Below are positions 1 through 59,805 of a stretch of 64,000 bases of DNA, one piece after another. How positions within the stretch are numbered: the stretch's first letter is position 1; each line of letters begins with the position of its first letter. This DNA comes from Phyllobates terribilis (taxonomy: Eukaryota): the NCBI RefSeq assembly GCF_046119375.1, contig NW_027362771.1:459358001-459422000 (forward strand). Reading direction: 5' to 3'. Made by a program: the position numbers and the translations under genes. The notes under the pieces were generated by a model. The model searched no databases. It was not told the DNA's origin and worked only from the letters and a program-made list of their open reading frames with translations.

Positions 1-280
1 GCTGAAGCAGAGTAGTGAACAGTGCAACAACATTGCTCGGGCACCTCCATTTTGGAGGAGGTGCCTTATATATGGAGGGATCCTCCGGCCATTGGCCGGG
101 GACTCCTTAGGGCGACGCGCGCGGCCCCTTTAAGAGAGGGGGAGCGCGCGCGCCCTAAGCACAGTGACCGGGGGAGAGCGGGCGCTGCAAGCAGAGCGGA
201 AGGAAGCCGCCGGGCACGGAGCAGAGAGGTGAGGGGAACATCGTCCCTGCCTAGCAGGAGGCAGGGACGCCGACGCTACA
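1..280 (-). mobile_element. U3 end of an LTR (probably Tf1/sushi group), rest of element outside window; inserted in a Tc1 transposase
   Basis: Minus strand begins TGTAGCGTC (LTR-type TG end) exactly where Tc1 coding sequence resumes at 281. TATATA at 67-72. GC-rich U3 laid out like the LTRs at 54477-59126. Confidence 0.65.
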
Positions 281-18667: not shown

Positions 18668-18677
18668 TTCCCCCCTA
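18668..18677 (-). other. Polypurine tract
   Basis: TAGGGGGGAA immediately upstream of the 3' LTR start TGTGAC on the minus strand. Confidence 0.85.
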
Positions 18678-19022
18678 GTGAAATTTAGTACTCCGGGACT
18701 AAACATATTTTAGAAAAACATAACAAGATATAACAATAACAATACAATAAAGAAACACATAAAGGTGGTCACGGCATGTCCGTTACCGGGTGCAGTCTTT
18801 GAAGAAAGCAAGGTGTCCATTTCACCAAAACAGGGAGACGTAACCAGGTAGGGGTCTGTCCTGCCCCGAGTCCTTAACAGTCTTTAGTCCGTCCTGGGTT
18901 ACACTCCAACTATGTACACAGGATTCCCGGTAAATCCACCAAGGACTCCTAAAAATAACTAGAAACACATAATTATTTACAAGTAACAGACAGGTGACCA
19001 CAAATAAAACAATTTAAACACT

Positions 19023-23242: not shown

Positions 23243-24078
23243 GGGATGTCCTCCGGTCCGGATGCCAGCTGGATCTTCCCTGGAGTGGAAACCTGTAAAG
23301 ACTGCACAGTTCGGGTTAGCGCAGCAACGCTTTTAGCTAGCTCTTGGACCTGATGGTGCAGGTCTGGAGCCGGGTCATTGTTCAAAGCCTGCGCATCAGC
23401 TCCCACAGGCCCTGCCGACAAGGGTGCCGCCTCCTGGTGGTAAGTGGTAGTGGGGCGTCTGTGGGTCACAACGCCACCTGGTGCCGGTTCTCGGAGCACC
23501 CGGATGGCTCTGTCCTTGAACTGTGCAAATCCCAGATGAGGGTCCTGTAAGGCCATTGCCCGCAACTGGGTTCGGTGGGCATTACAATATAAACCCTCTA
23601 TAAATTGTTCAGTCAACAGCCTGTCCTCGTCTCCCACGCCGTCAGGGTCGGTCTGCTTAATGGCTCTCAGGGCCTCTTGTAGGTTCAGGGCATAGTCCCT
23701 TATACTCTCGTGTGCTCGCTGCTTGCACCCGTAGAATCTAAGCTTGATCTCGGCTGAGGTGCGGGTATCAAAGGTGTCCCTCAGCCGGGTTAGTATCCCT
23801 GCGACAGTCCTCCCCCCAGGTGGCCAGGACTTTACCTCCCTTCGGGCTGCCCCAGTTAATTGGGCCACCAGGATGCTCACTTTTTGCTCTTCTGTGAGGC
23901 GGTACACCTGGAAGAGGCTATCCAGCTTTTCTCTAAAGTCATGCAGGGTATGTGACTCCCCTGAGTACTGGGGTAGCCAGGCCGCTCCCGGGATATAGGG
24001 CATGGTGAAAGGCATGACTGCAGCAGCGGTGGCGCTGGCGGGGGTTGAGGCAGTGAAGCTCTCCTCCGTATCCGACAT
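23098..24078 (-). CDS. gag: Gag (326 aa) with CCHC zinc knuckle
   Basis: CRRCNQPGHMARYC (CX2CX4HX4C); lies between the PBS and pol. Confidence 0.93.
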   Translation of the reverse strand: MSDTEESFTASTPASATAAAVMPFTMPYIPGAAWLPQYSGESHTLHDFREKLDSLFQVYRLTEEQKVSILVAQLTGAARREVKSWPPGGRTVAGILTRLRDTFDTRTSAEIKLRFYGCKQRAHESIRDYALNLQEALRAIKQTDPDGVGDEDRLLTEQFIEGLYCNAHRTQLRAMALQDPHLGFAQFKDRAIRVLREPAPGGVVTHRRPTTTYHQEAAPLSAGPVGADAQALNNDPAPDLHHQVQELAKSVAALTRTVQSLQVSTPGKIQLASGPEDIPWRRPRRTPPARGRPSDRYNEDGRPICRRCNQPGHMARYCPLNWHNLG

Positions 24079-24495
24079 CCTCCTCCCCCCTAGTGGACCG
24101 TGGCCTACCTTGCGATGATCCTCTTCCGTAGGCCGCGGCTCCGCAGTAGATCGTCAGGGTTGAGGACCTTCTGTCGCGCTCCTGTGACGTCGGCGTCTGC
24201 TGGGCTCCTTCCAGGACCTTACGCGACGTCCGGACGTGAGGCGGGGCTTCAGTTCTCGCGCGCTTTCGGAGTCCACGCCCCTCTTCTTCCCGCGCGACGT
24301 CTTCAAGATGGCGTCCAACGGCGGGAAAACTCCACGGAAGGCGGGAAGAAGGCTGAAAATGGCGCCGGATGGCGGGAATCTTCACCGATGGCGGGAAGAA
24401 GGCTGAAGATGGCGCCGGATGGCGGGAATCTTCACCACAGGTAAGTTTGAACAGTCTTTTTCAGGCACGCAGTACCCGGTGGTTGCGGGCACGAT

Positions 24496-24513
24496 ATTCT
24501 GCCGACTACGCCA
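24496..24513 (-). other. Primer-binding site, tRNA-Ser
   Basis: TGGCGTAGTCGGCAGAAT, 5 nt from the LTR; complementary (1 mismatch) to the vertebrate tRNA-Ser(AGA/TGA) 3' end ...ATCCTGCCGACTACG-CCA (recalled). Confidence 0.85.
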
Positions 24514-24518
24514 AAAGT

Positions 24519-25519
24519 TGACGCGCCCCTGGGCCTGTGTCGCGCTGCGTTGCGCACGCGGGAGCTTACCCGGAGCCGGATCTGTTGAGGGTTGTAGTCT
24601 CGTGGCGGTGACCCGGTCCGTGCCCAGGGAGTCAAACTGAGCGGCGATGTATCAGCGGTAGATGTTGGACGACTACGCCACCCGTTGAGTACAGCTAAGA
24701 AGCTGCTGCTGCAGGGCAGACCGCTGAGGCCGGTGGTAGGATTGTGCAGCGTGATAGTATAACCCCCAACGGGAGGGGTATGGCCTCAGGGCAGCCGACG
24801 TGGATGATGGGGGTAGCAGGAACCACTCGGAGACGGTACGGTGTAGTTCAGGGTCTTTACTGGTGACAAAGATAGACCCTCCCGGAGTACTGGCTAGCGA
24901 TTGGGGCCTGGTCAGTCCTTGAGCAGATGGGATCTCCCCTGGCCAGGCGGAGTTGTAGGCCTCCCAAACTAACTGTACTCTTCTGGCTACCTTGCTAGAG
25001 GCTGGTATAAGTAGCCCACGTCCCTCAGTGTACCGTGTGGTGCTCACCCGTATGGCCGGTGACTCGAGGCCTTCTAGTAGCTTCCGCTCCACGACGGCGG
25101 TGCTGGTCCCATGCGTGTGACCGTGCCTTCGGGTTTCTTGGCCAGAGGACCTGGAATCCCCTGCCTGACGGATTCTGCTGCTGGGTAGGAGTTAGTCCCC
25201 ACAGCCTCGGACTCCGGGTCCGGTAAGAAATCTTCTCAGTCAGGGCGAGCTCTGCAGCTGCCAGCCCCTGACTCCTTGTAACACTGCTCCCACAGAGCTC
25301 CTGATGTTCTGTTCCTATATTTGCTTCTTTTCTCTGTCTCTACTTCTTCTCTACTCACTAACCCTGCCTCAGCCCCAGTTTTATATAGGGGAAGTTCTTC
25401 CCCTCCCAGGACTGTGCAGGAGGTGTGGCATGCATAGGATTCCTGACCAAGAGACCTCCCACCTGCTCTCAGACATAATATCTCTATCACTGTGGCAACC
25501 AGACCCCTGGGGTGTCACA
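24519..25519 (-). repeat. 5' LTR
   Basis: Direct repeat of 17667-18667; TATA-like TATATAAAA on the minus strand near 25379-25387. Confidence 0.95.
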
Positions 25520-32075: not shown

Positions 32076-35000
32076 TGACGCACCCCCTGGGCCATGTTCA
32101 AGGGATACCCGGAGCCGGATCTGGATGGGGGTAGTAGTCCTTGTGGCGGTGACCCGGTCCGTGCCCAGGGAGTCAAACTAAGTGGCGAGTCTATTAGCAG
32201 TAGATGTTGGATGACTACGCCACCCGTTGAATGCAGCTTTGGAGCTGCCGCTGCAGGGCAGACCGCTGAGGCCGGTGGAAGGATGGTGCAGCGGGGATGG
32301 TATAACCCCCAACGGGAGGGGTATGGCCTCAGGGCAGCCGACGTGGATGATGGGGGTAGCAGGAACCACTCAGAGACGATGCGTGTAGTTCAGGGTCTTT
32401 ACTGGTGACAAAGATAGACCCTCCCGGAGTACTTGCTAGCGATCGGGGCCTGGTCAGTCCTTGAGCAGATGGGATCTCCCCTGGCCAGGCGGAGTTGTAG
32501 GCCTTCCCAGCTAACTGTACTCTTCTGGCTACCTTGCTAGAGGCGGGTAAAAGTAGCCCACGTCCCTGAGTGTACCGTGTGGTGCTCACCCGTATGGCCG
32601 GTGACTCGGGGCCTTCTAGTAGCTTCCGCTCCACGACGGCGGTGCTGGTCCCATGCGTGTGACCGTGCCTTCGGGTTTCTTGGCCAGAGGACCTGAAATC
32701 CCCTGCCTGACGGATTCTGCTGCTGGGTAGGACTTAGTCCCCACAGCCTCGGACTCCGGGTCCGGTAAGAAATCTTCTCAGTCAGGGCGAGCTCTGCAGC
32801 TGCCAGCCCCTGACTCCTTGTAACACTGCTCCCACAGAGCTCCTGTTGTTTCTTCCCATAGCTGCTTCTCTTCTCTGTCTCTACTCCTGGCATGGCCCAG
32901 GAGCTGGGCCCAGCCGGAGCCACAGCTCCCTGTCAGCCCTCCTGGCTGAACTCTCCCTCTGAACTCTCTAACCCTGCCTCAGCCCCAGGTTTATATAGGG
33001 GAAGTTCTTCCCCTCCCAGGACTGGGCAGGAGGTGTGGCATGCATAGGATTCCTGACCAAGAGACCTCCCACCTGCTCTCAGACATAACATTGCCGTTAC
33101 TGTGGAAACCAGACCCCTGGGGTGCCACATTCCCCCCTAGTGAAATTTAGTACTCCGGGACTAAACATATTTTTAGAAAAACATAACAAGGTATAAACAA
33201 TAATAATACAATAAGAAAAACACATAAAGATGGTTACGGCGTGTCCGCAACCGGGTGCAGTTTTTGAAGAAAAGCAAGGTGTCCATTTCACCAAAACAGG
33301 GAGACGTAACCAGGTAGGGGTCTGTCCTGCCCCGAGTCCTTAACAGTCTTTAGTCCGTCCTGGGTTACGCTCCAACTATGTACAAAGGATTCCCGGCAAA
33401 TCCACCAAAGACTCCCATAAATTACTAGAAACACATAATTATTTACAGGATATGGCCGCTCTCAGTCCTCGGCCAGTGGGGATAAGGAATGGCTGCTCAC
33501 AGTCCTCAGCCTGGTTTAAGATAGGGGCACATGGGGAACAATTCACTAATCCCAACGGGGACCATATTTTAATTAGCAGCAGTCCTTGTACCCTTACGGG
33601 TAACTATTTACAGCTCTTTATTCACGCTACTTCCCTTCAGTAGCTATGTCCTCTTTGTGCTCCCTCCTGAGGGTAGTCCTCAGACCCATCCGGGTCCTCT
33701 TGGCTTTCCTCGTATTGGTAGTACTGCAGCTCCTCCTCGGTTAGCTGGGTTAGTATCTCTGCGACAGTTCTCCTCCCAGGTGGCCAGGACTTTACCTCCC
33801 TTTGGGCTGCCCCGGTTAATTGGGCCACCAGGATGCTCACTTTTTGCTCCTCTGTGAGGGGGTACACCTGGAAGAGGCTATCCAGCTTTTCTCTAAAGTC
33901 ATGCAGGGTATGTGACTCCCCTGAGTACTGGGGTAGCCAGGCTGCCCCCGGGATATAGGGCATGGTGAAAGGCATGACCGCAACAGCGGTGGCGCTGGCG
34001 GGGGTTGAAGCGGTGAAGCTCTCCTCCGTATCCGACATCCTTCTCCCCCCTAGTGGACCGTGGCCTACCTTGCGATGATCCTCTTCCGTAGGCCGCGGCT
34101 CCGCAGTGGATCGTCAGGGTTGAGGACCTTCCGTCGCGCTCCTGTGACGTCGGCGTCTGCTGGGCTCCTTCCAGGACCTTACGCAACGTCCGGACGTGAG
34201 GCGGGGCTTCAGTTCTCGCGCGCTTTCGGAGTCCACGCCCCTCTTCTTCCCGCGCGGCGTCCTCAAGATGGCGTCCAATGGCGGGAAAACTCCACGTATG
34301 GCGGGAAGAAGGCTGAAGATGGCGCCGGATGGCGGGAAAACTCCACCGATGGCGGGAAGGAAGCGGAAGATGGCGCCGGATGGCAGGAATCTTCACCACA
34401 GGTAAGTTTGAACAGTCTTTTTCAGGCACGCAGTACCCGGTGGTTGCGGGCACGAAATCCTGCCGACTACGCCAAAGTTGACGCACCCCCTGGGCCATGT
34501 TCAAGGGATACCCGGAGCCGGATCTGGATGGGGGTAGTAGTCCTTGTGGCGGTGACCCGGTCCGTGCCCAGGGAGTCAAACTAAGTGGCGAGTCTATTAG
34601 CAGTAGATGTTGGATGACTACGCCACCCGTTGAATGCAGCTTTGGAGCTGCCGCTGCAGGGCAGACCGCTGAGGCCGGTGGAAGGATGGTGCAGCGGGGA
34701 TGGTATAACCCCCAACGGGAGGGGTATGGCCTCAGGGCAGCCGACGTGGATGATGGGGGTAGCAGGAACCACTCAGAGACGATGCGTGTAGTTCAGGGTC
34801 TTTACTGGTGACAAAGATAGACCCTCCCGGAGTACTTGCTAGCGATCAGGGCCTGGTCAGTCCTTGAGCAGATGGGATCTCCCCTGGCCAGGCGGAGTTG
34901 TAGGCCTTCCCAGCTAACTGTACTCTTCTGGCTACCTTGCTAGAGGCTGGTAAAAGTAGCCCACGTCCCTGAGTGTACCGTGTGGTGCTCACCCGTATGG

Positions 35001-35532
35001 CCGGTGACTTGGGGCCTTCTAGTAGCTTCCGCTCCACGACGGCGGTGCTGGTCCCATGCGTGTGACCGTGCCTTCGGGTTTCTTGGCCAGAGGACCTGAA
35101 ATCCCCTGCCTGACGGATTCTGCTGCTGGGTAGGAGTTAGTCCCCACAGCCTCGGACTCCGGGTCCGGTAAGAAATCTTCTCAGTCAGGGCGAGCTCTGC
35201 AGCTGCCAGCCCCTGACTCCTTGTAACACTGCTCCCACAGAGCTCCTGTTGTTTCTTCCCATAGCTGCTTCTCTTCTCTGTCTCTACTCCTGGCATGGCC
35301 CAGGAGCTGGGCCCAGCCGGAGCCACAGCTCCCTGTCAGCCCTCCTGGCTGCACTCTCCCTCTGAACTCTCTAACCCTGCCTCAGCCCCAGGTTTATATA
35401 GGGGAAGTTCTTCCCCTCCCAGGACTGGGCAGGAGGTGTGGCATGCATATGATTCCTGACCAAGAGACCTCCCACCTGCTCTCAGACATAACATTGCCGT
35501 TACTGTGGAAACCAGACCCCTGGGGTACCACA
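32076..35532 (-). mobile_element. Non-autonomous internally deleted relative of the 17667-25519 Gypsy family (3457 bp)
   Basis: 1054-bp LTRs at 32076-33129 and 34479-35532 (~7 mismatches seen), TSD CTAG, tRNA-Ser PBS 34456-34474 (19-nt match), PPT, 1349-bp interior without pol. Confidence 0.95.
33637..34038 (-). CDS. Chimeric mini-ORF: first ~98 aa of Gag fused to a 35-aa acidic tail
   Basis: Near-identical to Gag of 23098-24078 up to EILTQL, then TEEELQYYQYEESQEDPDGSEDYPQEGAQRGHSY*. Confidence 0.7.
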   Translation of the reverse strand: MSDTEESFTASTPASATAVAVMPFTMPYIPGAAWLPQYSGESHTLHDFREKLDSLFQVYPLTEEQKVSILVAQLTGAAQREVKSWPPGRRTVAEILTQLTEEELQYYQYEESQEDPDGSEDYPQEGAQRGHSY

Positions 35533-41502: not shown

Positions 41503-41842
41503 GTCAGTCCTGTCAGATCAGTCAGTCAGTCCTGTCAGATCTGTCAGTCAGTCCTGTCAGATCTGTCAGTCAGTCAGTCCTGTCAGATCTGTCAGTCAGT
41601 CCCGTCAGTCAGTCAGTCCTGTCAGATCAGTTCAGTCAGTCAGTCCTGTCAGATCAGTCAGTCCTGTCAGATCAGTCAGTCCTGTCAGTCAGTCAGTCCT
41701 GTCAGATCAGTCCAGTCAGTCGTGTCAGATCAGTCAGTCAGTCCTGTCAGATCAGTCCGGTCAGTCCAGTCCAGTCCGGTCAGTCCAGTCCGGTCCCGTC
41801 CTTTCAGTCCGGTCCGTTCAGTCCGGTCCGTTCAGTCCAGTC
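41503..41842. repeat. (GTCA)n-based compound microsatellite upstream of the transposase
   Basis: GTCAGTCCTGTCAGATC-type repeats ending just before the ATG at 41861. Confidence 0.9.
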
Positions 41843-41860
41843 AAAAAATATAAAAATAAA

Positions 41861-43666
41861 ATGGCCCGTCAGACTTATACCGCAGAAGAGGTGTATGCCC
41901 TGCTATGTTCTGACACTGATGACAGTGCAATCTCAGATGGAGATATGGATTTTGAGGGCTTTAGTAGCGGCGACACTGAGAGCTCAGAAATGAGCAGTGA
42001 TTCTGTTCCATCCTCAAGCCCAAGGACCAGTACAGCAATAGGGGCAAATAGCGCTACTGGAGAATCGTCTCCAAATCAGGGAACACTGCCCAGTACAAGC
42101 GCTGTCCCTGCTACTAGTGAATTGGCGCACGCCAGTGTACAAGGGGCATTGCCACATGATCTAGCATTTCCCAGATGGGAGGCTTCGGATTCGGCTGCTC
42201 CATTCAGCCCTCATTTCAATGACACTCCTGGTATAAATGTGGAGGTGGAAGATTTTGGACCAATTCATTTTTTTAATTTGTTTTTTTACAGGCAGCTTGC
42301 TAGAGCATATTGTCGTGCAAACAAATTTATATGCATCCCAATTCATAAGCCAGAATCCCCGATCTTACTATGCTAGGGCAAATTTATGGACACCAACTAA
42401 TGTCCCAGAAATAAAAAAATTTTTAGGACTTACATTTGCCATGGGGCTTGTTAAAAAACCGAGCATTCGATCCTAATGGTCCAACCACCCTGTTCAAGCC
42501 ACCCCTATGTTTTCAGTCGTTCTGCCTAGGACCCGTTATGAAATGCTCATGCGGTTTTGGCATTTTAACGACAATAGTCAATGCCTGCCCAGAAATGCCC
42601 CAGAACATGACAGGTTATATAAAATTAGACCCATCATGAAAAATTCTTAAGCCTCTACACCCCAACACAAAATATTTCTATAGATGAGTCCCTTGTAAAA
42701 TTCAAAGGAAGACTGCACCTCAAACAATTTATCCCATCTAAAAGGGCAAGGTTTGGAATAAAGCTCTATAAAATGTGTGAAAGTTCAACCTTATACACAT
42801 CCGCTTTTTGCATATATGAGGGGAAAGATAGCCAACTAAACCCACCAGGATGCCCTACTTATCTGGGGACATCTGGAAAAATTGTTTGGGAGCTGATAAG
42901 TCCATTTTTTCAAAAAGGCTACAATCTATATGTGGACAATTATTACACCAGCATACCCCTATTTAAAAGTCTGGTTGAACACAACATCGGGGCTTGTGGG
43001 ACCATCCGTAAAAACCGTCAGGGGTTTCCACAACCATTGGTCAACCAATAGTTTCAAAAGGGGCAGTCAGGTGCTGTACGCAACGGAGAGCTGCTTGCCC
43101 TGAAATATAGGGATAAGAGGGATATTTTTGTCCTCAGCTCGATCCACACAGATGCCACAAGGGCCACTGTAGAACTAGGATCCACCACTCCGAAGCAAAA
43201 ACCTGTGTCAGTCATTGACTACAACAAACACATGGGGGGTGTGAACCTTGCAGACCAGGTTCTACAGCCATACCAGGTATCAAGAAAGTCCTATACCTGG
43301 TATAAAAAGTTGGTTATTTATTTGTTTCAGGTGGCCACATGCAATTCTTTTGTGTTGTACAAAAAAGCAGGAAATTCAGATCCTTTTCTTGATTATCAAG
43401 AAAAGGTAATTGAAAATTTTGTCTTTCAAAGTGTTAGCCCCGCTCATCCATTAGAATCTGAGGATGTGAAAAGACTCACTGAGCGACATTTTATTGCACT
43501 TATTCCAGCAACGAAAACAAGAAGGAACCCCCAGAAAAGATGTCGTGTATATACTAAGAGAGGAATGAGGCGTGATACCCGCTACTATTGCCCACAATGC
43601 CCATCATTGCCAGCCTTATGCGTCACTGACTGCTTTAAAATCTTCCACACAGAACCACGTTTTTAA
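41861..43666 (+). pseudogene. PGBD4-like piggyBac transposase pseudogene
   Basis: Acidic N-terminus; SIDESL, YVDNYYTS and YNKHMGGVNLAD motifs; C-terminal cysteine-rich domain (YYCPQCPSLPALCVTDCFKIFH). Frameshifts and stops present. Confidence 0.9.
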
Positions 43667-45856: not shown

Positions 45857-47760
45857 CCCTAGAACGCATACCTGGGGCCTCGCATGCCTGCTAGGTTACT
45901 TGTTTTCTATTTTCTGCAAGATTACTTTAGTTAGAATTTTGAAACTCTAGGTATTCCTCAGGTATATAGTTGTTAGTAATTTCTAGTTGTTCATATATTT
46001 TTATGCTGTAGGCATTTCGGTAAAACAACTCTTTTTTGGGACTACCCCATATTCACATACCTGGGGCCTTTTAGGCCTGTACTTGGTTTACATGTGATTC
46101 TCAGTCTTTTTGTCTGTACTGTTACTTAGAAGGAAACCATATCTCTTCAGGAAGAAAAAAAACATGGAAAAATATAACAAAAGAGGAACTATATGGTTAT
46201 ATTGCCCTTACTCTTCTAGCAGGATGTACAAAATTGTACGCTGTTCCAATCAGAGAATTATTTCTGAACCCTTTTTCAGATCCACACTACAAAGCCACAA
46301 TGTCAGTCAATAGATTTGAGAATATTTGGAGAAGCCTTCGTTTTGATGATAAGAGAACTCGTCCTGTGAGGTTGGAAACAGATAAATTAGCCCCTATTAG
46401 CTACATCTGGAATCTTTTCATCAAAAGCTGTACAAAGCTTTACCATTCTAATGACAATGTGACAGTGGATGAGCAACTTCTTGCCTTTAGGGGACGTTGC
46501 AAATTCATTCAGTATATGCCCAGTAAACCTGCCAAGTATGGCATAAAATTTTTCTGGATGTGTGATTCTACAAGCTATTATGGCATGAATGGCCTGATTT
46601 ACTGTGGCAAAGAAGCTGATGCTCCAGTCCAGAAAGACCTATCTTCTGACAAAAAACTTGCAGTACCAATTTTCAATTCTGGAAAAATATAACAATGGAC
46701 AACTGCTTTACCAATCTGGAACTGGGCAAATTTTTGCTTCAGAAAAAACTGACACTTGTTGGTACTATGAGGCCAAACCGCCGCAAAATTCCTCCAATCA
46801 TGAAGCACAATCCCAAGCGACCACTTTATGAGAGTGTCTTTGGTTTCTGCAATCAATCGACAATGGTATCTTATAAAGCAAAGAAAGAAAATCCGTGATA
46901 TTACTGAGTACAATGCATCATGATGGAAGTATTGACACCGATGACAGGAAACAGAAACTTGAAATCATATTGCATTATAATAAAAAAAAAGGAGGTGTGG
47001 ACAAGATGGATGAAATGATTGGAGAGTATTTGTGCAAGAGGCAGACAAAACGTTAGCCTGTAGTCATTTTTTATAATATCCTTGATGTGTCAGCCCTCAA
47101 TAGCTATATTGTTTATAGTGAAACTAATTCAGAATTCCATGCCAACAGGAAGGACAAGAGACGTCTATTCTTGACGGAACTTTGCTATGAACTTTTGATG
47201 CCTACCATGATGGAGCGAAGCAACGTGAAATGCTTGCCAAGGCAAATTACGGAAGCTATGATCCGATGTGGTATACATTTTCAGGAACATCCAGAGCCGA
47301 GAGAAAAAAAAGAAAGCGCTCTTATATTTGTCCAGCAAAGAAGGAAAGGAAATCTGAGGGATTCTGTACTACTTGTGGACAAAATGTCTGCAAGGAACAT
47401 TCTTCCGAAAAAATAATATGTGAAAATTGTTGGGGTAATCAGTAAAGTTGAAAAGGAAAGTTTTTGAAAAGAAACATTCCTGCACCATGTTTACTACAAC
47501 TTTTATATAATAAACTTTTAGACAAAAAAATCGTTATATATATATATAAAGAATTATATAGAATGCATATATTGGGCGTTTTAAGCCGGTGTAATTATTT
47601 TTTTTGTTTTATGCACATAATTATAATGTTTTGAAATATTCACATCTCAAATAAACTTTGAAAAGTATTTCTATTTGAGTTACTCCATGTTATTTGCACA
47701 CAGGCCTAAAAGGCCCCAGGTATGTGAAAGTGTAGATTTCTATGGTTGCGCATTCTAGGG
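45857..47760 (+). mobile_element. Canonical-type piggyBac transposon (1904 bp), decayed
   Basis: TTAA on both sides. TIR CCCTAGAA(C/T)GC. Internal repeat CATACCTGGGGCCT at both ends with asymmetric spacers, plus a third copy at ~46055. Confidence 0.92.
46234..47445 (+). pseudogene. piggyBac transposase pseudogene
   Basis: VTVDEQLLAFRGRC...KPAKYGIK; DNCFT...VGTMRPNR; YNKKKGGVDKMD; C-terminal CTTCGQNVCKEH. Several frameshifts. Confidence 0.9.
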
Positions 47761-50236: not shown

Positions 50237-50319
50237 CGCGCCAAATTTGTTTAATTTGTTTATCCTAGGGTATCACAAGAAAGAAGACAGACATCAAGTC
50301 AGCAGGGACAAGGAGCAGC

Positions 50320-51279
50320 ATGGCAGATGTGACAACCTACATGGTGAGCTGCAACATGTGCTACATGTTCACAGATCGACCAGAAGCTGAAACCAACTTC
50401 ACCTGCCAGAAGTGTAGACTACTGGCTCTTTTAGAAGAAAAGGTGCGGGGACTGGAAGAAAGAATTGCGACATTAAAACTCATCAAGGAAAATGAAGACT
50501 TCCTGGACAGAACAGAAGCGTCACTACTGGTCACGGAAAGTCAAGGAAGCATCAGAGAACCTCCAGAGGCAGACAAGTGGAGGCAAGTGACCAAAAGAAG
50601 CAAGAAGACCATGGAGACACCACCAACCACACAACTGAGAAACAGATTCCAAGGACTTGTGGAGGACGAAGATGGCACACCTAAGGATGAGGAACTACCA
50701 GCAAGCAAAAAAGAAAAGAGCACCCAAAAACACCCAGAAGCGACAAGAAAAAGGACAGCCAAGAAGGGAAGAAGAGTGGTGGTGGTGGGAGACTCACTAC
50801 TGAGAGGAACAGAAGCAGCTATCTGCAGACCGGACATAACCGCAAGAGAAGTATGCTGCCTCCCAGGGGCGAAGATCAAGGATGTTACCGATAGGATACC
50901 GAAGCTCATCAGTTCCAAGGATGTCCACCCATTTCTTCTGATACATGTTGGCACCAATGACACGGCAAAGAAGGACCTACCGACAATCTGCAAGGACTTT
51001 GAAGCATTGGGGAAGAAAGTAAAAGAACTGGATGCACAGGTAGTTTTTTCTTCTATCCTTCCAGTAGACGGGCATGGCGTCAGGAGATGGAACAGGATCC
51101 TTGATGTGAACAACTGGCTGAGACGATGGTGCAGACAACAAGGATTTGGATTCCTGGACCACGGTGTGAATTACCTCTATGACGGACTCCTTGCCAGAGA
51201 CGGACTACACCTCAACAAACCCGGGAAACACACATTCGTCAGGAGACTCGCAACACTCATCAGGAGGGCGTTAAACTAG
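50320..51279 (+). CDS. CR1 ORF1p: CX2C...CX2C zinc motif, coiled coil, SGNH/GDSL esterase domain
   Basis: CNMC...CQKC; LEEKVRGLEERIATL; VVGDSLLRG; HVGTND; DGLHL. Confidence 0.93.
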   Translation: MADVTTYMVSCNMCYMFTDRPEAETNFTCQKCRLLALLEEKVRGLEERIATLKLIKENEDFLDRTEASLLVTESQGSIREPPEADKWRQVTKRSKKTMETPPTTQLRNRFQGLVEDEDGTPKDEELPASKKEKSTQKHPEATRKRTAKKGRRVVVVGDSLLRGTEAAICRPDITAREVCCLPGAKIKDVTDRIPKLISSKDVHPFLLIHVGTNDTAKKDLPTICKDFEALGKKVKELDAQVVFSSILPVDGHGVRRWNRILDVNNWLRRWCRQQGFGFLDHGVNYLYDGLLARDGLHLNKPGKHTFVRRLATLIRRALN

Positions 51280-51290
51280 AAGAAGAGGGG

Positions 51291-54236
51291 ATGGGAAGAA
51301 AAACGCCGGACACGAACATGCAACCAGAGAACATACTAATGAAAAATATGAAGTGCGACAAAGAAGGTCCAAGACAAGATGCTTGGAAGGGAGGTAAGAA
51401 AATTTCTAATACAATCCACAGGGAGATGATTGGAACAAAACAAAATCGTGTAAACTGCATGCTAGCAAATGCCAGGAGCCTGACAAACAAGATGGATGAA
51501 CTGGAAGCAGAAATATCTACAGGTAACTATGACATAGTGGGAATAACCGAGACATGGTTAGATGAAAGCTATGACTGGGCAGTTAACTTACAGGGTTACA
51601 GTCTGTTTAGAAGGGATCGAAGAAGTCTGAAAGGGGGTGGAGTCTGTCTATATGTAAAGACGTGTCTAAAGCCTACAATACGGGAGGATGTATGGGAGGG
51701 AAATGAGAAGGTTGAGTCCTTATGGGTGGAGATACATGGGGCAAAAAACAATAATAAAATTATCATAGGAGTCTGTTATAAACCACCAAATATAGCAGAA
51801 GCCACGGAAAGTCTATTAATGAGACAAATAGACGAAGTAGCAAAAAATAACGAGGTGATTATTATGGGGGACTTCAACTACCCCGATAAAGACTGGGAAA
51901 CCGAAAGCTGTAGATCTCAGAAAGGAAACAGGTTTCTGTCAATTATCAAAGACAATTATTTATCACAACTTGTGCAGGAACCAACTAGAGGGACGGCCCT
52001 TTTAGACTTAATATTAACTAACAGGCCAGACAGAATAACTGAGGTGCAGGACGGGGGGCACCTGGGAAATAGTGACCACAACATTATACAATTCCACATG
52101 TGCTTCAGTAGGGTGCCCAGCAGGGGAGTCACAAAAACACTGAACTTCTGGAGGGCAAAGTTTGATCAGCTAAGAGATGCCCTTCACCTTATAGACTGGG
52201 ATAGTATCTTCAGTAATAGCAGCATGGATAGAAATTGGGAAATTTTCAAAACAGTCCTACATAGTCACTGTAGAAGGTACATACCTTATGGGAATAAAAG
52301 GGCTAGGAATAGGAGGAAGCCAATGTGGCTAAATAAGGAAGTCAAGAGGGCAATGAAAAACAAAAAAAGGGCTTTCGGTAAACTTAAACAAGAAGGCAGC
52401 GAGGAAGCGCTAATATCTTATAGGGAAAAAAACAAAATCTGTAAGAAACAAATAAGAATAGCAAAAGAGGAGACAGAGAGACTAATTGCCAAGGAAAGTA
52501 AAACGAATCCCAAACTGTTCTTTAACTATATAAACAGTAAAAGGATTAAAACTGATGGAGTTGGCCCATTGAAAAATAACCTGGGTAAAATCATAGAGGC
52601 CGATGAGGGTAAAGCAAACCTACTCAATAGCTTCTTCTCCACTGTTTTCACAAAAGAAAACAATTTATCGGAGGAAATGCAAAGTGATAAAGTAAACCCT
52701 CCGCTAAATATCACCCACCTAACCCAGGAGGAAGTTCAGAAACGCCTAAATAATATCAAAATAGACAAGTCACCAGGCCCAGATGACATACACCCCCGGG
52801 TACTAAAAGAATTAAGTAATGTGATAGACAGGCCGCTGTATCTTATATTCAAGCACTCTTTATGGACAGGGACTGTCCCACTAGACTGGCGCCAAGCAAA
52901 TGTGGTACCAATATTCAAAAAGGGGTCTAAAAGTGACCCTGGGAACTATAGACCAGTCAGCTTAACATCTGTTGTGGGTAAATTGTTTGAAGGATTTCTT
53001 AGAGATGCTATTGTAGAATATCTTAATGATAATAACTGTCTAACTCCATATCAACATGGATTCATGAGGGATGGCTCCTGCCAAACAAACCTGATCGCCT
53101 TCTACGAGGAGGTGAGCTCACAGCTGGACCGGGGAGAGTCAGTGGATGTTGTATACCTTGACTTCTCCAAAGCGTTTGATACTGTGCCACACAAAAGGTT
53201 GGTATATAAAATGAGAATGCTTGGTCTGGGGGATAATGTGTGCAAGTGGGTAAATAGCTGGCTGAGTGATAGAAAGCAGAGGGTGGTTATCAATGGAGTA
53301 AGCTCAGGGTGTGTCAGGGTTACTAGCGGGGTGCCTCAAGGGTCTGTCTTGGGCCCTATATTATTTAATATATTTATTAATGATCTAGTGGAAGGGTTGC
53401 ATAGTAAAATAGCAATATTTGCAGATGATACTAAACTTTGTAAAGTAGTTAATACAGATGAGGATAGGGCACAGCTACAGGAGGATTTAGATAAATTGGG
53501 GAGTTGGGCCAAAAAATGGCAAATGGGGTTCAATGCCGATAAATGTAAGGTCATGCACATGGGAAAGAAAAACAGCAGTCACCCATACATATTAAATGGG
53601 AAACCGTTGGGGAAATCTGACATGGAGAAGGACCTGGGCGTCTTGGTTAATAACCAATTAAATTGGAGTGCCCAGTGTCAGGCAGCAGCTGCGAAGGCAA
53701 ATAGAGTCATGGCATGCATCAGAAGAGGAATAGGGGCATATGATGAGAACATTGTTCTTCCTCTGTATAAAGCGCTGGTAAGGCCGCACTTAGAATATTG
53801 TGCACAGTTCTGGGCTCCGGTGCTCAGGAAAGACATATTGGAGCTAGAGAGGGTACAAAGGAGGGCGACTAAGGTAATAAAGGGAATGGAGGGACTAGAC
53901 TACCCAGAGAGGTTGGCAAAATTAGGCCTATTTACATTGGAAAAGAGAAGGCTTAGGGGAGACCTCATAAACATGTATAAATACATCAGGGGGCAGTACA
54001 GAGATCTCTCCCATGACCTGTTTATACCAAGGATGGTGACAAAGACGAGGGGGCACACTATGCGTCTGGAGGAAAGGAGGTTCCTGCACCAGCATAGAAG
54101 GGGATTCTTTACGGTCAGAGCCGTGAGACTCTGGAACTCTCTGGGAGAGGAAGTGGTGATGTCCAACTCACTTAATGAGTTCAAGAGAGGCCTGGACACC
54201 TTTCTTGAGAACAATAAAATTACATCTTATGCTTAG
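51291..54236 (+). CDS. CR1 ORF2p: APE endonuclease plus reverse transcriptase (981 aa)
   Basis: NARSL, GITETW, MGDFNYP, LDLILTN, SDH; FDTVPH, PQGSVLGP, FADD. Confidence 0.97.
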   Translation: MGRKTPDTNMQPENILMKNMKCDKEGPRQDAWKGGKKISNTIHREMIGTKQNRVNCMLANARSLTNKMDELEAEISTGNYDIVGITETWLDESYDWAVNLQGYSLFRRDRRSLKGGGVCLYVKTCLKPTIREDVWEGNEKVESLWVEIHGAKNNNKIIIGVCYKPPNIAEATESLLMRQIDEVAKNNEVIIMGDFNYPDKDWETESCRSQKGNRFLSIIKDNYLSQLVQEPTRGTALLDLILTNRPDRITEVQDGGHLGNSDHNIIQFHMCFSRVPSRGVTKTLNFWRAKFDQLRDALHLIDWDSIFSNSSMDRNWEIFKTVLHSHCRRYIPYGNKRARNRRKPMWLNKEVKRAMKNKKRAFGKLKQEGSEEALISYREKNKICKKQIRIAKEETERLIAKESKTNPKLFFNYINSKRIKTDGVGPLKNNLGKIIEADEGKANLLNSFFSTVFTKENNLSEEMQSDKVNPPLNITHLTQEEVQKRLNNIKIDKSPGPDDIHPRVLKELSNVIDRPLYLIFKHSLWTGTVPLDWRQANVVPIFKKGSKSDPGNYRPVSLTSVVGKLFEGFLRDAIVEYLNDNNCLTPYQHGFMRDGSCQTNLIAFYEEVSSQLDRGESVDVVYLDFSKAFDTVPHKRLVYKMRMLGLGDNVCKWVNSWLSDRKQRVVINGVSSGCVRVTSGVPQGSVLGPILFNIFINDLVEGLHSKIAIFADDTKLCKVVNTDEDRAQLQEDLDKLGSWAKKWQMGFNADKCKVMHMGKKNSSHPYILNGKPLGKSDMEKDLGVLVNNQLNWSAQCQAAAAKANRVMACIRRGIGAYDENIVLPLYKALVRPHLEYCAQFWAPVLRKDILELERVQRRATKVIKGMEGLDYPERLAKLGLFTLEKRRLRGDLINMYKYIRGQYRDLSHDLFIPRMVTKTRGHTMRLEERRFLHQHRRGFFTVRAVRLWNSLGEEVVMSNSLNEFKRGLDTFLENNKITSYA

Positions 54237-54801
54237 TTAATTAATCCAGGGATTTAATCTGACTGCCAGATTGGTGTCGGGTAGTGAATTTTTCCTCAAT
54301 GATGTAAATTGGCCTATACCGCATGGTATAGGAATAGCGGAATAGCTGCAGTGCACAAGAAATAGGCTGAACTGGATGGACGCTTGTCTTTTTTCGGCCT
54401 TATAAACTATGTAACTATGTAACTAGTCACAGGTGACAATATTGTTTTATCATTATGGCATTTTTCTGCTTGTTATTGTTATGCACACGCCCGGGCTAAG
54501 CGGCGTGTGCGTGTGATTGGTAGTGATTCCACTGGACCGTGCCGGAGAGTGAATGCCTGGAGGGGCGTGACTAAGTATTCACCCGATCCGACCAGGGTCG
54601 CACGACGGCATACGACGCCAGTGCACCAAGGAGGAACCGAGCAGAGGGACCAGGTGCTACTCCAGGACAGACCCCGGACACGGCTGTTGACCCACACAGG
54701 GGAATACAGGAACAGGCTGGTAGGCTGGCACACAGACTGGTGGGTATAGGCAGGCACGACTGGTATGCAGGCAGGCGGGTATGCAGGCAGGGGGGTAAAG
54801 A

Positions 54802-55041
54802 CAAGCACAGCTAGAGTGCAGACAGGGAGGCACTAGCAGGTAGGAACACAGGCGGGATAGGACCCAGTACACACCGGGACTCAGGAACAATACAGGCAGA
54901 GGGTTACAGGCAAGCACAGCTAGAGTGCAGACAGGGAGGCACTAGCAGGTAGGAACACAGGCGGGATAGGACCCAGTACACACCGGGACTCAGGAACAAT
55001 ACAGGCAGAGGGTTACAGGCAAGCACAGCTAGAGTGCAGAC
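54802..55041. repeat. 109-bp tandem repeat (2 copies plus partial) inside the LTR; also a 49-bp x3 repeat at 55445-55580; both mirrored in the other LTR
   Basis: Units start at 54802, 54911 and 55020; TCAGTTCAGACACGGG units at 55445, 55494 and 55543. Confidence 0.9.
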
Positions 55042-55667
55042 AAGGCTGAGCAGGGAGGACAGGGCTCTGTTCACACGGAACAGACAGGAAGGGAAAGACA
55101 GAGCCAGATACTCACACAGTACTTGCAGAGACAACAAGCAGGAGTTAGGTACGAGTTCAGACTCTGCAGAAAAAGGAAGGGAACGGACATAGAGGCAAAA
55201 CAGGTAAAGGACAGGAGAGAGTTCAGACTGGAACTGAGTGTACGGAGGAGACCGACACTGCAGAGGGATACAGGAGCGGGTCTGGGAATACGGCCCCCAG
55301 AGAGGCGGAACGAACAGGCAAGGAGCGTGTTCAGACAGGACAGACCAGACACAGGAGCGGGTCTAGGAAATCGGCCACTAGAAGGCGAGAGGAACAGGCT
55401 AGGAGCGTGTTCAGACAGGACAGACAAGAGAACACAGAAAGGAGTCAGTTCAGACACGGGAGCTGATACCGCAAAGCAGGAGACATACAGGACTCAGTTC
55501 AGACACGGGAGCTGATACCGCAAAGCAGGAGACATACAGGACTCAGTTCAGACACGGGAACTGATACAAAAAGCAGGAGACAAGAGACGGGACCTGGCAC
55601 CTTCAGAGTGCAAGCACACACTGAAGGAAACACTATGCTCAGGCCGGGATAGAAGGGAGCTGCTGAG

Positions 55668-57572
55668 CTATATACCAAGTGACAGACAGCAATAGGCTGA
55701 GGACGCACAAGGGGTGTGACCCACAGCAGGTACAAAAGGCAGGAAGTGATCGGGCGCCGCCCTTAAGCAGCAGAAACAGACACAAACAGACAGCATGGAG
55801 GGAAGCCAGAGAGACATTCTGGACAGGAGATCAAGTGCGCCCTCTTGCACAGTGGGAGATGGACCACCATGCAAGGACGCCGCCAGGTATGTTACAGTAC
55901 CTCCCCCCTTACGCCCCCTCTTCTTCAGGCCTGCCAGAATCTTCCGCAGGGAATTCGAGGACCAGTCGTTCACTGGGTTGGAGGGGGACAGAGACTTAAG
56001 GGTAATCTCTGCTTCGAGGTACATCTTGTCAAGCTCACAGGAAGAAATAGACGGGTTATCAGGTACATAATGAGAAAAAGTCACTGTCTCTTTGTTATCT
56101 GGTGGTATCCCGGAGGATTCAGGAAACAACTGGAGGTCCTCCGCCGGGTCAGAAGAGTGCAGAGGCTCAGAGAAAACAACTGCTTCAGAGTACACTAGGT
56201 CGGACTCACTGGAGGAAGCGGGCGAGGTATCGGGTACCGAGTATAGGAAAGTCTCTGTCCATTCACCACCAGGTGGCACCCCGAAGGGTTCTGGAGACAG
56301 CTGGCGGTCCTCCGCCTGGTCGGAGGGGTGTAGAGACTCAGGAGTAACCTCTGCTTCAGAGTACACTAGGTCGGACTCACTGGACGAAGCAAGCGAGGTA
56401 TCAGATCCAGGATATAGGAAAGTCTCTGTCCATTCACCACCAGGTGGCACCCCGAAGGATTCTGAACACAACTGGAGGTCCTCCGCCTGGTCGGAGGGGT
56501 GTAGAGACTCAGGAGTAACCTCTGCTTCGGAGTACACTAGGTTGGACTCACTGGACGAAGCGAGCGAGGTATCAGGTACAGAGTATAGGAGAGACTCTGT
56601 CCTTTCGCTACCAGGTAGCACCCCGAAGGGTTCAGGAGACAACTGGAGATCCTCCGCCTGGTCGGAGGGGTGTAGAGACTCGGAGGTAACTACCACTTTG
56701 GGGTACCCATTGTCAGGCTCACAGGACGAAGCGGACAAAGTATTGAGTACCGGGTGTAGAGAAGTCTCTCTCCATTTGTCATCGAGTGGTATCCCAGAGG
56801 GTTCAGGAGGCAACAGGGGATCCTCCGCCAGGTAGTAGAGGTGCACAGACTCTGAGGTAACCACAGCTTTGGAGCATCCTTGGACATGCACACCGGTTAA
56901 AGAGAAAGAAGCATCTGATGCCGGGTGCAGGAAGTTCTCCTGTGTGGAGTCTGGATGGGCAGAAGTCTCTTCGGCCAGGAGAACTGGTGCACTACCCACG
57001 CACATTACCCATTGGGGTTTCTCCGGGATACAGGGAGATGAAGCTTCAGTAGGGACTTCAAGGTTGGGGTCAGGAGGTCTCAGGGAGGACAGACCCTGGC
57101 GTGACGGCTTGCCTCTAAGTCTAGCACGTCTGGACTGCCTCTTGAGGTTGAGAGAAGTATTCCGGAAAGCGTAGTCACCCTGTGAGGATTCTGGGTGGGC
57201 AGTAGTCTCATTGGGCTGGAGGACTATTGCGCTACCCACACACATTACCCGTCGGGGCTGCTCCGGGATATTGGGAAGTGAAGCTTCAGCAGGGGCTTCC
57301 GGGTTAGGATCATCAAAGACCATTAGAAAGGCCACCAGGAAGGCCATTAGGTCCAGGAGGATCGGATCCTGTGTTTCATATAGGGGGTTGATCCATTCCA
57401 AGGCATCACCCGCCAGGTAAGACATAATAAAGGCCACTTTAGCCCAATCGGAAGGAAAATAGAGAGGGTAGGCCTTAAAGTGTAGCATGCATTGCTCCAC
57501 AAATGCACGACACTGTCTTGGATCCCCATAGTAACGTGGCGGATCCGCAGGAACGAGAGCTGATAGATCCAT
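55668..57572 (-). CDS. 634-aa Gag-capsid (PEG10/RTL/LDOC1-like) plus acidic tandem-repeat protein
   Basis: PPRYYGDPRQCRAFVEQC...FPSDWAKVAFIMSYLAGDALEW...F...FDDP (sushi-ichi/Mart capsid N-domain). Five 57-aa repeats. Tail KKRGRKGGGTVT crosses the PPT; stop lies in the 3' LTR. Confidence 0.85.
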   Translation of the reverse strand: MDLSALVPADPPRYYGDPRQCRAFVEQCMLHFKAYPLYFPSDWAKVAFIMSYLAGDALEWINPLYETQDPILLDLMAFLVAFLMVFDDPNPEAPAEASLPNIPEQPRRVMCVGSAIVLQPNETTAHPESSQGDYAFRNTSLNLKRQSRRARLRGKPSRQGLSSLRPPDPNLEVPTEASSPCIPEKPQWVMCVGSAPVLLAEETSAHPDSTQENFLHPASDASFSLTGVHVQGCSKAVVTSESVHLYYLAEDPLLPPEPSGIPLDDKWRETSLHPVLNTLSASSCEPDNGYPKVVVTSESLHPSDQAEDLQLSPEPFGVLPGSERTESLLYSVPDTSLASSSESNLVYSEAEVTPESLHPSDQAEDLQLCSESFGVPPGGEWTETFLYPGSDTSLASSSESDLVYSEAEVTPESLHPSDQAEDRQLSPEPFGVPPGGEWTETFLYSVPDTSPASSSESDLVYSEAVVFSEPLHSSDPAEDLQLFPESSGIPPDNKETVTFSHYVPDNPSISSCELDKMYLEAEITLKSLSPSNPVNDWSSNSLRKILAGLKKRGRKGGGTVTYLAASLHGGPSPTVQEGALDLLSRMSLWLPSMLSVCVCFCCLRAAPDHFLPFVPAVGHTPCASSAYCCLSLGI

Positions 57573-57700
57573 CTGGACGGTGCTTAATTCGCCTGGAACT
57601 CAGCTAAGGGAAAAAAAAAAAATTATTTATTTATTTTAATGCATGTATTCGCTGGAAAACTTCTCAGAGGGCGAAGGCCGTGGGGCTCAACGGGAACCAT

Positions 57701-57711
57701 GGCCTGAGCAT
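57701..57711 (-). other. Self-priming PBS (no tRNA complementarity recognised)
   Basis: ATGCTCAGGCC, 2 nt after the 5' LTR, is the exact reverse complement of GGCCTGAGCAT at 58875-58865. Confidence 0.8.
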
Positions 57712-58864
57712 GCTGTTATGCACACGCCCGGACTGACTGGCGTGTGCGGTTGTAGTGGTTCCACTGGACCATGAACCGGAGAGTGCCTGGAGGGGCGTAA
57801 CTAAGTATCTGGCCGATCCGACCAAGATGGCACGACGGCATACGACGCCAGTGCACCAGGGAGAAACCGGGCAGAGGGACCAGGTGCTACTCCAGGTCAA
57901 ACTCCGGACACGGGGGTTGACCCACACAGGGGAATACAGGAACAGGCTGGTAGGCTGGCACACAGACTGGTGGGTATAGGCAGGCACGACTGGTATGCAG
58001 GCAGGCGGGTATGCAGGCAGGGGGGTAAAGACAAGCACAGCTAGAGTGCAGACAGGGAGGCACTAGCAGGTAGGAACACAGGCGGGATAGGACCCAGTAC
58101 ACACCGGGACTCAGGAACAATACAGGCAGAGGGTTACAGGCAAGCACAGCTAGAGTGCAGACAGGGAGGCACTAGCAGGTAGGAACACAGGCGGGATAGG
58201 ACCCAGTACACACCGGGACTCAGGAACAATACAGGCAGAGGGTTACAGGCAAGCACAGCTAGAGTGCAGACAAGGCTGAGCAGGGAGGACAGGGCTCTGT
58301 TCACACGGAACAGACAGGAAGGGAAAGACAGAGCCAGATACTCACACAGTACTTGCAGAGACAACAAGCAGGAGTTAGGTACGAGTTCAGACTCTGCAGA
58401 AAAAGGAAGGGAACGGACATAGAGGCAAAACAGGTAAAGGACAGGAGAGAGTTCAGACTGGAACTGAGTGTACGGAGGAGACCGACACTGCAGAGGGATA
58501 CAGGAGCGGGTCTGGGAATACGGCCCCCAGAGAGGCGGAACGAACAGGCAAGGAGCGTGTTCAGACAGGACAGACCAGACACAGGAGCGGGTCTAGGAAA
58601 TCGGCCACTAGAAGGCGAGAGGAACAGGCTAGGAGCGTGTTCAGACAGGACAGACAAGAGAACACAGAAAGGAGTCAGTTCAGACACGGGAGCTGATACC
58701 GCAAAGCAGGAGACATACAGGACTCAGTTCAGACACGGGAGCTGATACCGCAAAGCAGGAGACATACAGGACTCAGTTCAGACACGGGAACTGATACAAA
58801 AAGCAGGAGACAAGAGACGGGACCTGGCACCTTCAGAGTGCAAGCACACACTGAAGGAAACACT

Positions 58865-58904
58865 ATGCTCAGGCCGTGATAGAAGGGAGCTGCTGAGCTA
58901 TATA
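58865..58904 (-). promoter_or_regulatory. LTR promoter: TATA box and predicted start site
   Basis: TATATA at 58904-58899; the self-primer sequence begins 29 nt downstream at 58875. Confidence 0.7.
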
Positions 58905-59524
58905 CCAAGTGACAGACAGCAATAGGCTGAGGACGCACAAGGGGTGTGACCCACAGCAGGTACAAAAGGCAGGAAGTGATCGGGCGCCGCCCTTAAGCAG
59001 CAGAAACAGACACAAACAGACAGCATGGAGGGAAGCCAGAGAGACATTCTGGACAGGAGATCAAGTGCGCCCTCTTGCACAGTGGGAGATGGACCACCAT
59101 GCAAGGACGCCGCCAGGTATGTTACAGTTATAACACCTACACTTTCCCTTGAACGTTGAGATATACCTATGTATTAGTTGAGAGGCGTCTTGATAGATTC
59201 ATCTTATTTAGGGATAGAAAGGGACTTTAGGGCTAGCCGCCGAGGAGCGGGGGAGCCACTATGTTCCCCCTAGGGTGCCAACCTCCGCTTCTAGGAACGG
59301 TAAGTTTAGTTACAGTCTAGGATATCAGTGAGGCCTATATATGACAATCAGGTTTGGTTTTATCATTTTTTTTTCTGTGTGTTGTTTGTTTTTGTGCTTC
59401 ACTTTTTTCGGTCAAGGTGGTCTTGACATTTTAGTAAATCAATAAAAGGTTTTATTTAAGGTCTTTATATGATTTATGTAGCTATTGTGACCTTTGATAC
59501 ATTATATTTTCCAAATATAAAGAA

Positions 59525-59805
59525 TAGTGTTGAGCGAGTATGTTCTGTCCGAGTATGCTCAGGCCGAGCTCCGAGTATTTATAGCTGCTCGGTGATATGG
59601 TTGAATCGCTCCCGTGTGCATGATTTGCAGCTGTTTGACAGTTTTATTACATGTGAGGAATGTGTAAGAAATAGACATTCCTCACATGTTGCAAATCATG
59701 CACACGAGAGCGATTCAACCATATCACCGAGCAGCTATAAATACTCGGAGCTCGGCCCGAGCATACTCGGCGAAAGGGTTAATAGAACATACTTGCTCAA
59801 CACTA
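59525..59805. mobile_element. hAT-type MITE
   Basis: TIR TAGTGTTGAGC / GCTCAACACTA; perfect 8-bp TSD ATAAAGAA. Confidence 0.9.

Follow-up and report, generated by a model that had tools for sequence, protein, structure and literature searches.

The window (the whole 64,000-nt stretch of Phyllobates terribilis DNA that was analysed) carries on its minus strand an LTR element whose parts are listed in Table 1. The R-U5 portion of the 5' LTR is packed with 49-, 80-, 109- and 16-nt repeats and is 12% A. No canonical poly(A) signal was found in the window LTR, and poly(A)-like hexamers (two AATAAA, ATTAAA and AATACA) occur only in the leader past the PBS, at 57631-57649 on the minus strand. Between the LTRs of this element there is no RT, RNase H or integrase. 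Over ~1200 nt the two LTRs show 1 base difference, and in its last 210 nt the 3' LTR belongs to another U5 subtype; the 35 differing alignment columns all fall in these last 210 nt (57714-57915 vs 54477-54690), and the TSD is intact. The end of the 5' LTR is exactly U5 subtype A (as in L265 and L266) and that of the 3' LTR exactly subtype B (as in L281 and L260), which suggests co-packaging of two subtypes or conversion in the history of this copy. Such asymmetry would mislead LTR dating. As a trait of the family it was rejected, being seen in 0/35 other copies.

Table 1. Features of the element and their coordinates in the window
Feature	Position	Strand	Remarks
Whole element	59126-54477	minus	4650 nt; TSD ATAAC on both sides
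5' LTR, TG...CA	57714..59126	minus	1413 nt
Internal region	57713-55897	minus	
3' LTR	54477..55896	minus	1420 nt
Left TSD ATAAC	59127..59131	.	right copy at 54472-54476
TATA box TATATAG	58898..58904	minus	30 nt upstream of the conserved primer; equal spacing in other families
Predicted 10-nt self-primer at predicted RNA 5' end	58865..58874	minus	58875 is an 11th pair in the window copy
TGTT, predicted to pair with LTR-end AACA	58859..58862	minus	pair probability 0.6-0.8; flanks predicted cleavage site
Single GTGAGT in R-U5	58340..58345	minus	candidate splice donor
U5 arm GGAACCA of predicted U5-leader stem	57756..57762	minus	weak alone (shuffle p 0.13)
9-bp U5 hairpin, U5-IR-like, just before LTR end	57720..57747	minus	pair probability 0.84 in window, 0.99 in L002
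PBS, complementary to self-primer	57702..57711	minus	2 nt (GC) past LTR end CA at 57714
Ancestral gag ATG, immediately 3' of PBS	57623..57700	minus	now a 25-codon uORF
A/T run of variable length, two AATAAA, T-run plus AG	57604..57640	minus	candidate splice acceptor
634-aa ORF	55668..57572	minus	stop inside 3' LTR
Polypurine tract, then TAC and 3' LTR	55900..55910	minus	~80% like helper end over 51 nt

At 58875-58865 (minus) the sequence GGCCTGAGCAT has its exact complement, ATGCTCAGGCC, at 57711-57701, past a 2-nt GC spacer. The first-pass annotation had described two perfectly complementary 11-mers, the second starting 2 nt after the 5' LTR and the first 29 nt downstream of a TATA box, in an element lacking a TGG-type tRNA PBS; all of this holds, since TATATAG starts at 58904 and no TGG follows the LTR. 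The 11-nt primer starting at 58875 that was read from it stands for the window copy, where the 11-mer is exact, but not for the family, whose duplex is 10 bp with a predicted start at 58874. Among 43 readable primers (from 68 loci examined, some of them overlapping), 33 have T at the base equivalent to 58875 and 9 have C, with G in the window copy alone. The contigs of 4 public runs have T at this position in almost all of their depth, and a small number of further copies, among them L264, L350 and L361, also have G. An 11-nt primer was therefore rejected, as both the copy alignment and the public contigs show the 11th pair to be a minority variant, and the conserved duplex is 10 bp, joining 58874-58865 with 57711-57702. 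The predicted start at 58874 lies 30 nt after TATA, with a pyrimidine immediately before it and GC from it on.

The window element belongs to a large family, here called the satellite family. Its LTR-PBS junction occurs exactly in at least 8,850 places in the genome (control 0), and the 150 best Gag matches in the genome are 99-100% identical; the genome searches scored the best 150 candidates only. With ~9,000 copies of 4-5 kb, the family makes up tens of megabases of the 10.6-Gb genome. Forty copies were fetched and 35 parsed, the other 5 having an undetected LTR boundary (3) or a missed PBS pattern (2). The parsed copies have LTRs of 1356-1727 nt with 0-7 substitutions between the LTRs of a pair, and all 35 are flanked by 5-bp TSDs, 34 of them perfect. 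RT, RNase H and integrase are absent from 35/35, and one copy keeps a chromodomain remnant, so the earlier description of an element that has lost its pol, RT and integrase included, applies to the window element and to every parsed copy. Because recent, TSD-flanked insertion took place without pol, the enzymes would have been borrowed. Older relatives retain remnants of the protease region and of the chromodomain, which argues for stepwise decay from a gag-pol element. Among named Gag proteins, the nearest come from frogs. Chromovirus Pol (PR-RT-RH-IN plus a C-terminal chromodomain) is absent in the element and present in the helper family described below; the element is a chromovirus derivative and not an autonomous member. 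In the subfamilies L253, L355, L359, L360, L363 and L364, the interval between TATA and primer differs (U3 swaps), with primer and spacing constant. Tandem copies 3.4-4.4 kb apart, some with a common LTR (L006/L007, L008/L009, L351, L354 and L355), recall the integrase-independent insertion at existing PBS sites that is described for Tf1 in the available text of PMC11042837.

Querying the genome with the element's DNA or its Gag brought up, among the best 150 candidates scored, nothing but the satellite family, and autonomous families from 40 DUF4939- or chromodomain-seeded stretches were rejected as helpers, having no LTR similarity. A search for the pattern of PBS plus start codon identified a lineage whose Gag is 52-59% identical and whose U5 is similar, the 'MEPG' family (L230-L249), which we treat as the candidate helper. 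Its fuller copies are 6.2-6.7 kb long with repeat-filled LTRs of 1.0-1.2 kb, a Gag of 321-352 aa (349 aa in the compared copy) and, overlapping with it, a Pol frame that can reach 1205 codons and includes RT, RNase H, integrase, a Tf2-type SH3 and a chromodomain. The best PDB match is Ty3 for this Pol and PEG10 for this Gag. Between helper and satellite, likeness is ~80% in a 103-nt portion of U5 (for some members) and equally high at the polypurine-tract end (Table 1). By blastn, the U3 and LTR termini of the helper show no likeness to those of the satellite, and Gag dS between the two is saturated; a closer helper may thus have been missed. The proposed search for an autonomous partner with similar LTR ends succeeded in part: a gag-pol relative exists whose U5, PBS surroundings, Gag and PPT end are homologous, but its U3 and LTR termini are not alike. 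MEPG appears to be the closest gag-pol family among the best 150 scored, and is not a proven parent.

The helper's 10-mer differs from that of the satellite, and its loops measure 530-985 nt. The repeat-filled R-U5 loop of ~1.15 kb pointed out at first reading is present in the window but is not specific to the satellite, as long loops are common to the autonomous relative. We rejected it as a satellite novelty, and since helper loops reach ~1 kb it is better seen as an inherited trait of the lineage. As for processing in trans, any RNA that shares a particle with RT should undergo it, and it is not surprising in itself.

Compensatory changes between primer and PBS were the main check proposed for self-priming, and they are found within the satellite family and between families. 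The variant PBS ATGCACAGGC occurs at 74 places in the genome. Thirty of these loci were taken and 22 had a readable primer, which matched the variant in 12, was canonical in 9 and was another sequence in 1, leaving 10/22 copies discordant between primer and PBS. Among canonical-PBS copies the variant primer was seen in 2/32 (Fisher p 1e-4 against the variant-PBS copies, the copies not being independent). In L356, L359 and L360, which are older members, GCCTGAGCAA is matched by TTGCTCAGGC. Five autonomous chromovirus groups have their PBS at LTR+3..+12 and their primer ~30 nt after a TATA-like box, and the autonomous groups have matched 10-mers of their own in equal register (GCCCGAGCAA, GCCTGAGTAT, GCTAGAGTAT, GCTTGTGTAT and GCTTCTGAAT), with single-base misses in L106 and in the 5' LTR of L151. 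In the helper family, 50 loci gave the PBS from 46 and the primer from 41; primer and PBS agree at 31/41 readable loci, 3 of which show one more paired change, and disagree at 10/41. Covariation within the satellite family and across the autonomous groups supports the view that a Tf1/sushi-like self-priming has probably been retained.

Folding of the leader is consistent with this. The primer:PBS helix has a probability of 0.94-1.00 in the whole window leader and is the majority pairing in 8/9 leaders folded (the weakest of these, L150, at 0.34-0.64), while the L155 leader folds without it (p 0.00). A 5' duplex and the U5 hairpin beside the PBS are predicted with pair probabilities of 0.6-0.99. 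A third predicted stem joins U5 to the sequence that follows the PBS, taking in the gag ATG in 12/13 leaders; in the window the ancestral gag ATG sits within this stem (57699-57693). The stem is a 7-bp pseudoknot, each instance weak when taken alone (shuffle p 0.03-0.67 over 13 leaders), and in the helper its two central pairs are swapped relative to the satellite. A parallel to it has reportedly been noted in Tf1. Retroviruses, which use tRNA primers, have a U5-IR and U5-leader or U5:AUG stems. The satellite would resemble them in its hairpin before the PBS and its U5 arm over the gag AUG, and differs in that retroviruses are tRNA-primed and that its own stem is a prediction. For the Tf1/sushi group, a 'pretzel' of three duplexes around the PBS is described (10.1101/2022.12.06.519325, in the text available), and the predicted flanking duplexes of the satellite leader may correspond to this description, with the third stem the weak one.

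A more direct trace of a partner may be kept in the PBS itself. The helper's PBS TTGCTCGGGC is found in 2/44 satellite-context copies with a non-A first PBS base, L269 and L350. These are separate insertions, with TSDs CTGGC and ATTGG and different Gag subtypes. Each has the canonical primer in both LTRs and retains the satellite's GC spacer and downstream TT, and in both copies the limits of the foreign tract are set by the spacer base 1 nt ahead of the PBS and by the bases 6 nt beyond it. The change A>G alone at PBS position 7 occurs 0 times in the genome (there is one T variant only), so that two independent point mutations are very unlikely. The reciprocal case, a helper copy with the satellite's full PBS, is absent among 51 pattern matches and 46 helper PBS. 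The Tf1 primer is reportedly not removed. In addition, the PBS sequence of Tf1 is copied onto the ends of its cDNA (PMC11042837, as far as its accessible text goes), and a new PBS can therefore derive from whichever primer was used. The simplest reading of the two copies, and on their sequences a rather probable one, is priming by the helper's released 10-mer.

Self-priming would be just as real if the foreign tract had come from a short patch of recombination or gene conversion, of 15 nt or less, with helper RNA or DNA as donor. Recombination of co-packaged RNAs is evidently common, given the discordant primer/PBS pairs and the two U5 subtypes of the window copy, and Tf1 cDNA is described as recombining at PBS homology (PMC11042837, available text). 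However, there is almost no flanking homology for the double switch that this would take, and the tract recurs in two sub-lineages with identical limits; we regard such a patch as unlikely, though still to be reckoned with, and prefer priming by the helper's 10-mer. As a separate observation on this site, the 44 copies show more transversions (23 T, 16 C) than transitions (5 G) at PBS position 1, a pattern that differs from neutral decay; an error-prone primer junction may account for it, or these copies may have been primed by other 10-mers.

The satellite could also rely on a different autonomous family. One example is the 1499-aa family, with a 10-mer one base off that of the satellite. That family is young and has many open ORFs, and its PBS ATACTCAGGC is carried by 2 satellite copies. 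Yet this PBS is also just one transition from the satellite's own, the LTRs show no similarity to the satellite by blastn, and the Gag is of another sub-lineage. When satellite copies were searched for the PBS types of the other groups, the 8 matches were all single-base variants, and the PBS of the three more distant groups is absent among them. A separate pattern search of the genome gave 8 family variants and 1 unrelated match. We consider such a dependence improbable and keep MEPG as the candidate.

That a tRNA fragment or another host small RNA recognises the PBS, with the match in R a by-product, seems very improbable. Half-tRNA priming is known in other LTR groups (PMC6317226, in its accessible portion). 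But the PBS does not begin with TGG, and at least 8 different PBS 10-mers in the genome each match their own R at equal spacing, which disfavours a host primer because such a primer would keep the PBS constant. Chance complementarity in a decayed element can be dismissed: the same 11-mer is present in a nearby MITE and a 10-mer complement arises somewhere in the LTR at a rate of 1% (20/2000 Markov-resampled LTRs), but within TATA+25..35 the expectation is ~5e-5 (analytic), and the fixed register, the covariation and the thousands of young copies all stand against chance and refute it.

The 634-aa ORF consists, in order, of a capsid N-lobe (DUF4939, aa 20-95), 57-aa acidic repeats and a chromodomain-tail remnant, KGGGTV. 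Satellite and helper Gag are 51% identical over 94 aa, and the homology stops near aa 190-203, about where the helper segment begins (aa 187-269) that matches the PEG10 structure 7LGA and that we infer to be the C-lobe. No zinc knuckle was found in the satellite ORF, the N-lobe alone had no significant PDB match, and no longer proteins containing aa 1-95 were found in a search that was weak by its own measure. This ORF, which falls into 8 length classes, is open in 35/35 copies. The frame that starts at the ancestral ATG is, by contrast, scattered (17/10/8), with an early stop in 34/35; in the older copies L352 and L353 the ancestral ATG is open into Gag. Together with an N-lobe dN/dS of ~0.23-0.6 (window vs 8 other members), this is why the truncated N-lobe protein appears to be under selection. 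GTGAGT occurs once in 35/35 5' LTRs and is absent from the 3 helper LTRs checked, and its presence in R-U5, along with the T-run and AG before the second ATG, suggests a spliced mRNA; the joint from 58345 to 57604 was not found in the assembled contigs of 5 public runs. In L355, an older member, the capsid N-lobe is apparently duplicated within the ORF.

We thus read the element as one copy of a high-copy, pol-less satellite of Tf1/sushi-type chromoviruses, in which the first 10 bases of the RNA likely serve as the primer of reverse transcription and RT, RNase H and integrase are likely supplied by a relative that is still intact. We give this reading a probability of about 0.87. In the proposed cycle, transcription would start at 58874, and the 10-mer at the RNA 5' end would pair with the PBS across the 1.15-kb, A-poor R-U5 loop, assisted by the U5 hairpin and the flanking duplexes. 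The satellite RNA would enter particles made by a gag-pol family (MEPG being the likeliest), and the RNase H of that family would cut after base 10, as in Tf1. The primer would then be copied into the new PBS, so that a primer mutation would fix its own partner change, which would explain both why the two covary so tightly and why one-sided intermediates exist. On rare occasions, satellite RNA would be primed by the released 10-mer of the helper, and the resulting copy would end up with the helper's PBS. Beyond this, we tentatively suggest that self-primers are not strictly cis-acting: the cut 10-mer might be exchangeable within the particle, so that the PBS would record the priming RNA and would let the helper be named from the genome sequence by itself, and the selected RTL8-like N-lobe might enter or bias helper capsids, as a mobile counterpart of RTL8/PEG10.

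Self-priming as a mechanism is already known from the Tf1/sushi group, where it is established or proposed for members that include vertebrate elements (PMC6317226, PMC4600332, PMC7175516 and PMC5341516). In the text of these reports that was available, it is shown experimentally mainly in fission yeast, and the vertebrate cases are given as inferred. What is new here are the two satellite insertions with a helper PBS. Like Tf1 and Tf2 of S. pombe and sushi-ichi, the satellite has no tRNA PBS and has a PBS complementary to the predicted 5' end, and its relatives carry a chromodomain and a Tf2-type SH3. It differs in its primer of 10 nt, compared to the 11 nt described for Tf1 (PMC7175516, available text), and in having no pol, a 1.0-1.5-kb loop, a Gag cut to the capsid N-lobe and thousands of copies.

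Gag-only elements have been described in plants as TR-GAG (PMC4350172). Going by the accessible part of that report, the satellite is similar to them in its LTRs, PPT, 5-bp TSD, single gag-derived ORF, multiple copies and mobilisation in trans; in TR-GAG1, for its part, the PBS is of the tRNA-Leu type, the Gag precursor includes a zinc knuckle, and a partner was not found. The satellite is set apart by its vertebrate host, its putative self-priming, its N-lobe-only Gag and its candidate helper, and at 4650 nt with the N-lobe only it falls outside the TR-GAG definition, which calls for <4 kb and a complete Gag precursor. In bivalves, TRIMs that lack a canonical PBS are described (PMC6934838, available text). 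The SIRH/RTL family is said in the accessible text of PMC11011659 to retain only the N-lobe, and one such sushi-derived protein, RTL8 (Mart/SIRH), enters and antagonises PEG10 particles according to that of PMC11684626. RTL8 is described there as a domesticated host gene of 113 aa, whereas the satellite's N-lobe is fused to ~540 aa of repeats on a mobile element, and we take the likeness as a lead only, by analogy. Among the openly available papers searched, there was no report of a vertebrate gag-only self-priming family and none of self-primers acting in trans.

This genome offers dense natural covariation for self-priming, half-way changes included. If the foreign PBS was indeed left by a helper's primer, 'self' primers can act in trans, and there would be a general sequence test linking non-autonomous self-priming elements to their helpers. 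In addition, the capsid N-lobe of the satellite, apparently under selection, would be a natural parallel to domesticated RTL8-type genes.

Other elements lie in the same window, which contains no tRNA gene. A MITE with 81-nt inverted arms at 59549-59770 holds the primer's 11-mer in one arm (59565-59555, its only occurrence outside the element) and a 13-nt match to a helper PBS variant in the other, both probably by chance. A second Gypsy element at 17388-25191 (minus), with a PNMA-like zinc-knuckle Gag and a 1025-aa pol frame, is unrelated and was rejected as a helper; a truncated copy lies at 32329-35335 (minus). Open frames of 336 and 1017 aa at 50269-54236 (plus), 240 bp from the satellite element, presumably belong to a CR1-like LINE, and the transposase remnants at 602-1087, 41504-43666 and 46075-46692 are, from their motifs, what we take to be Tc1/mariner-like and piggyBac-like.
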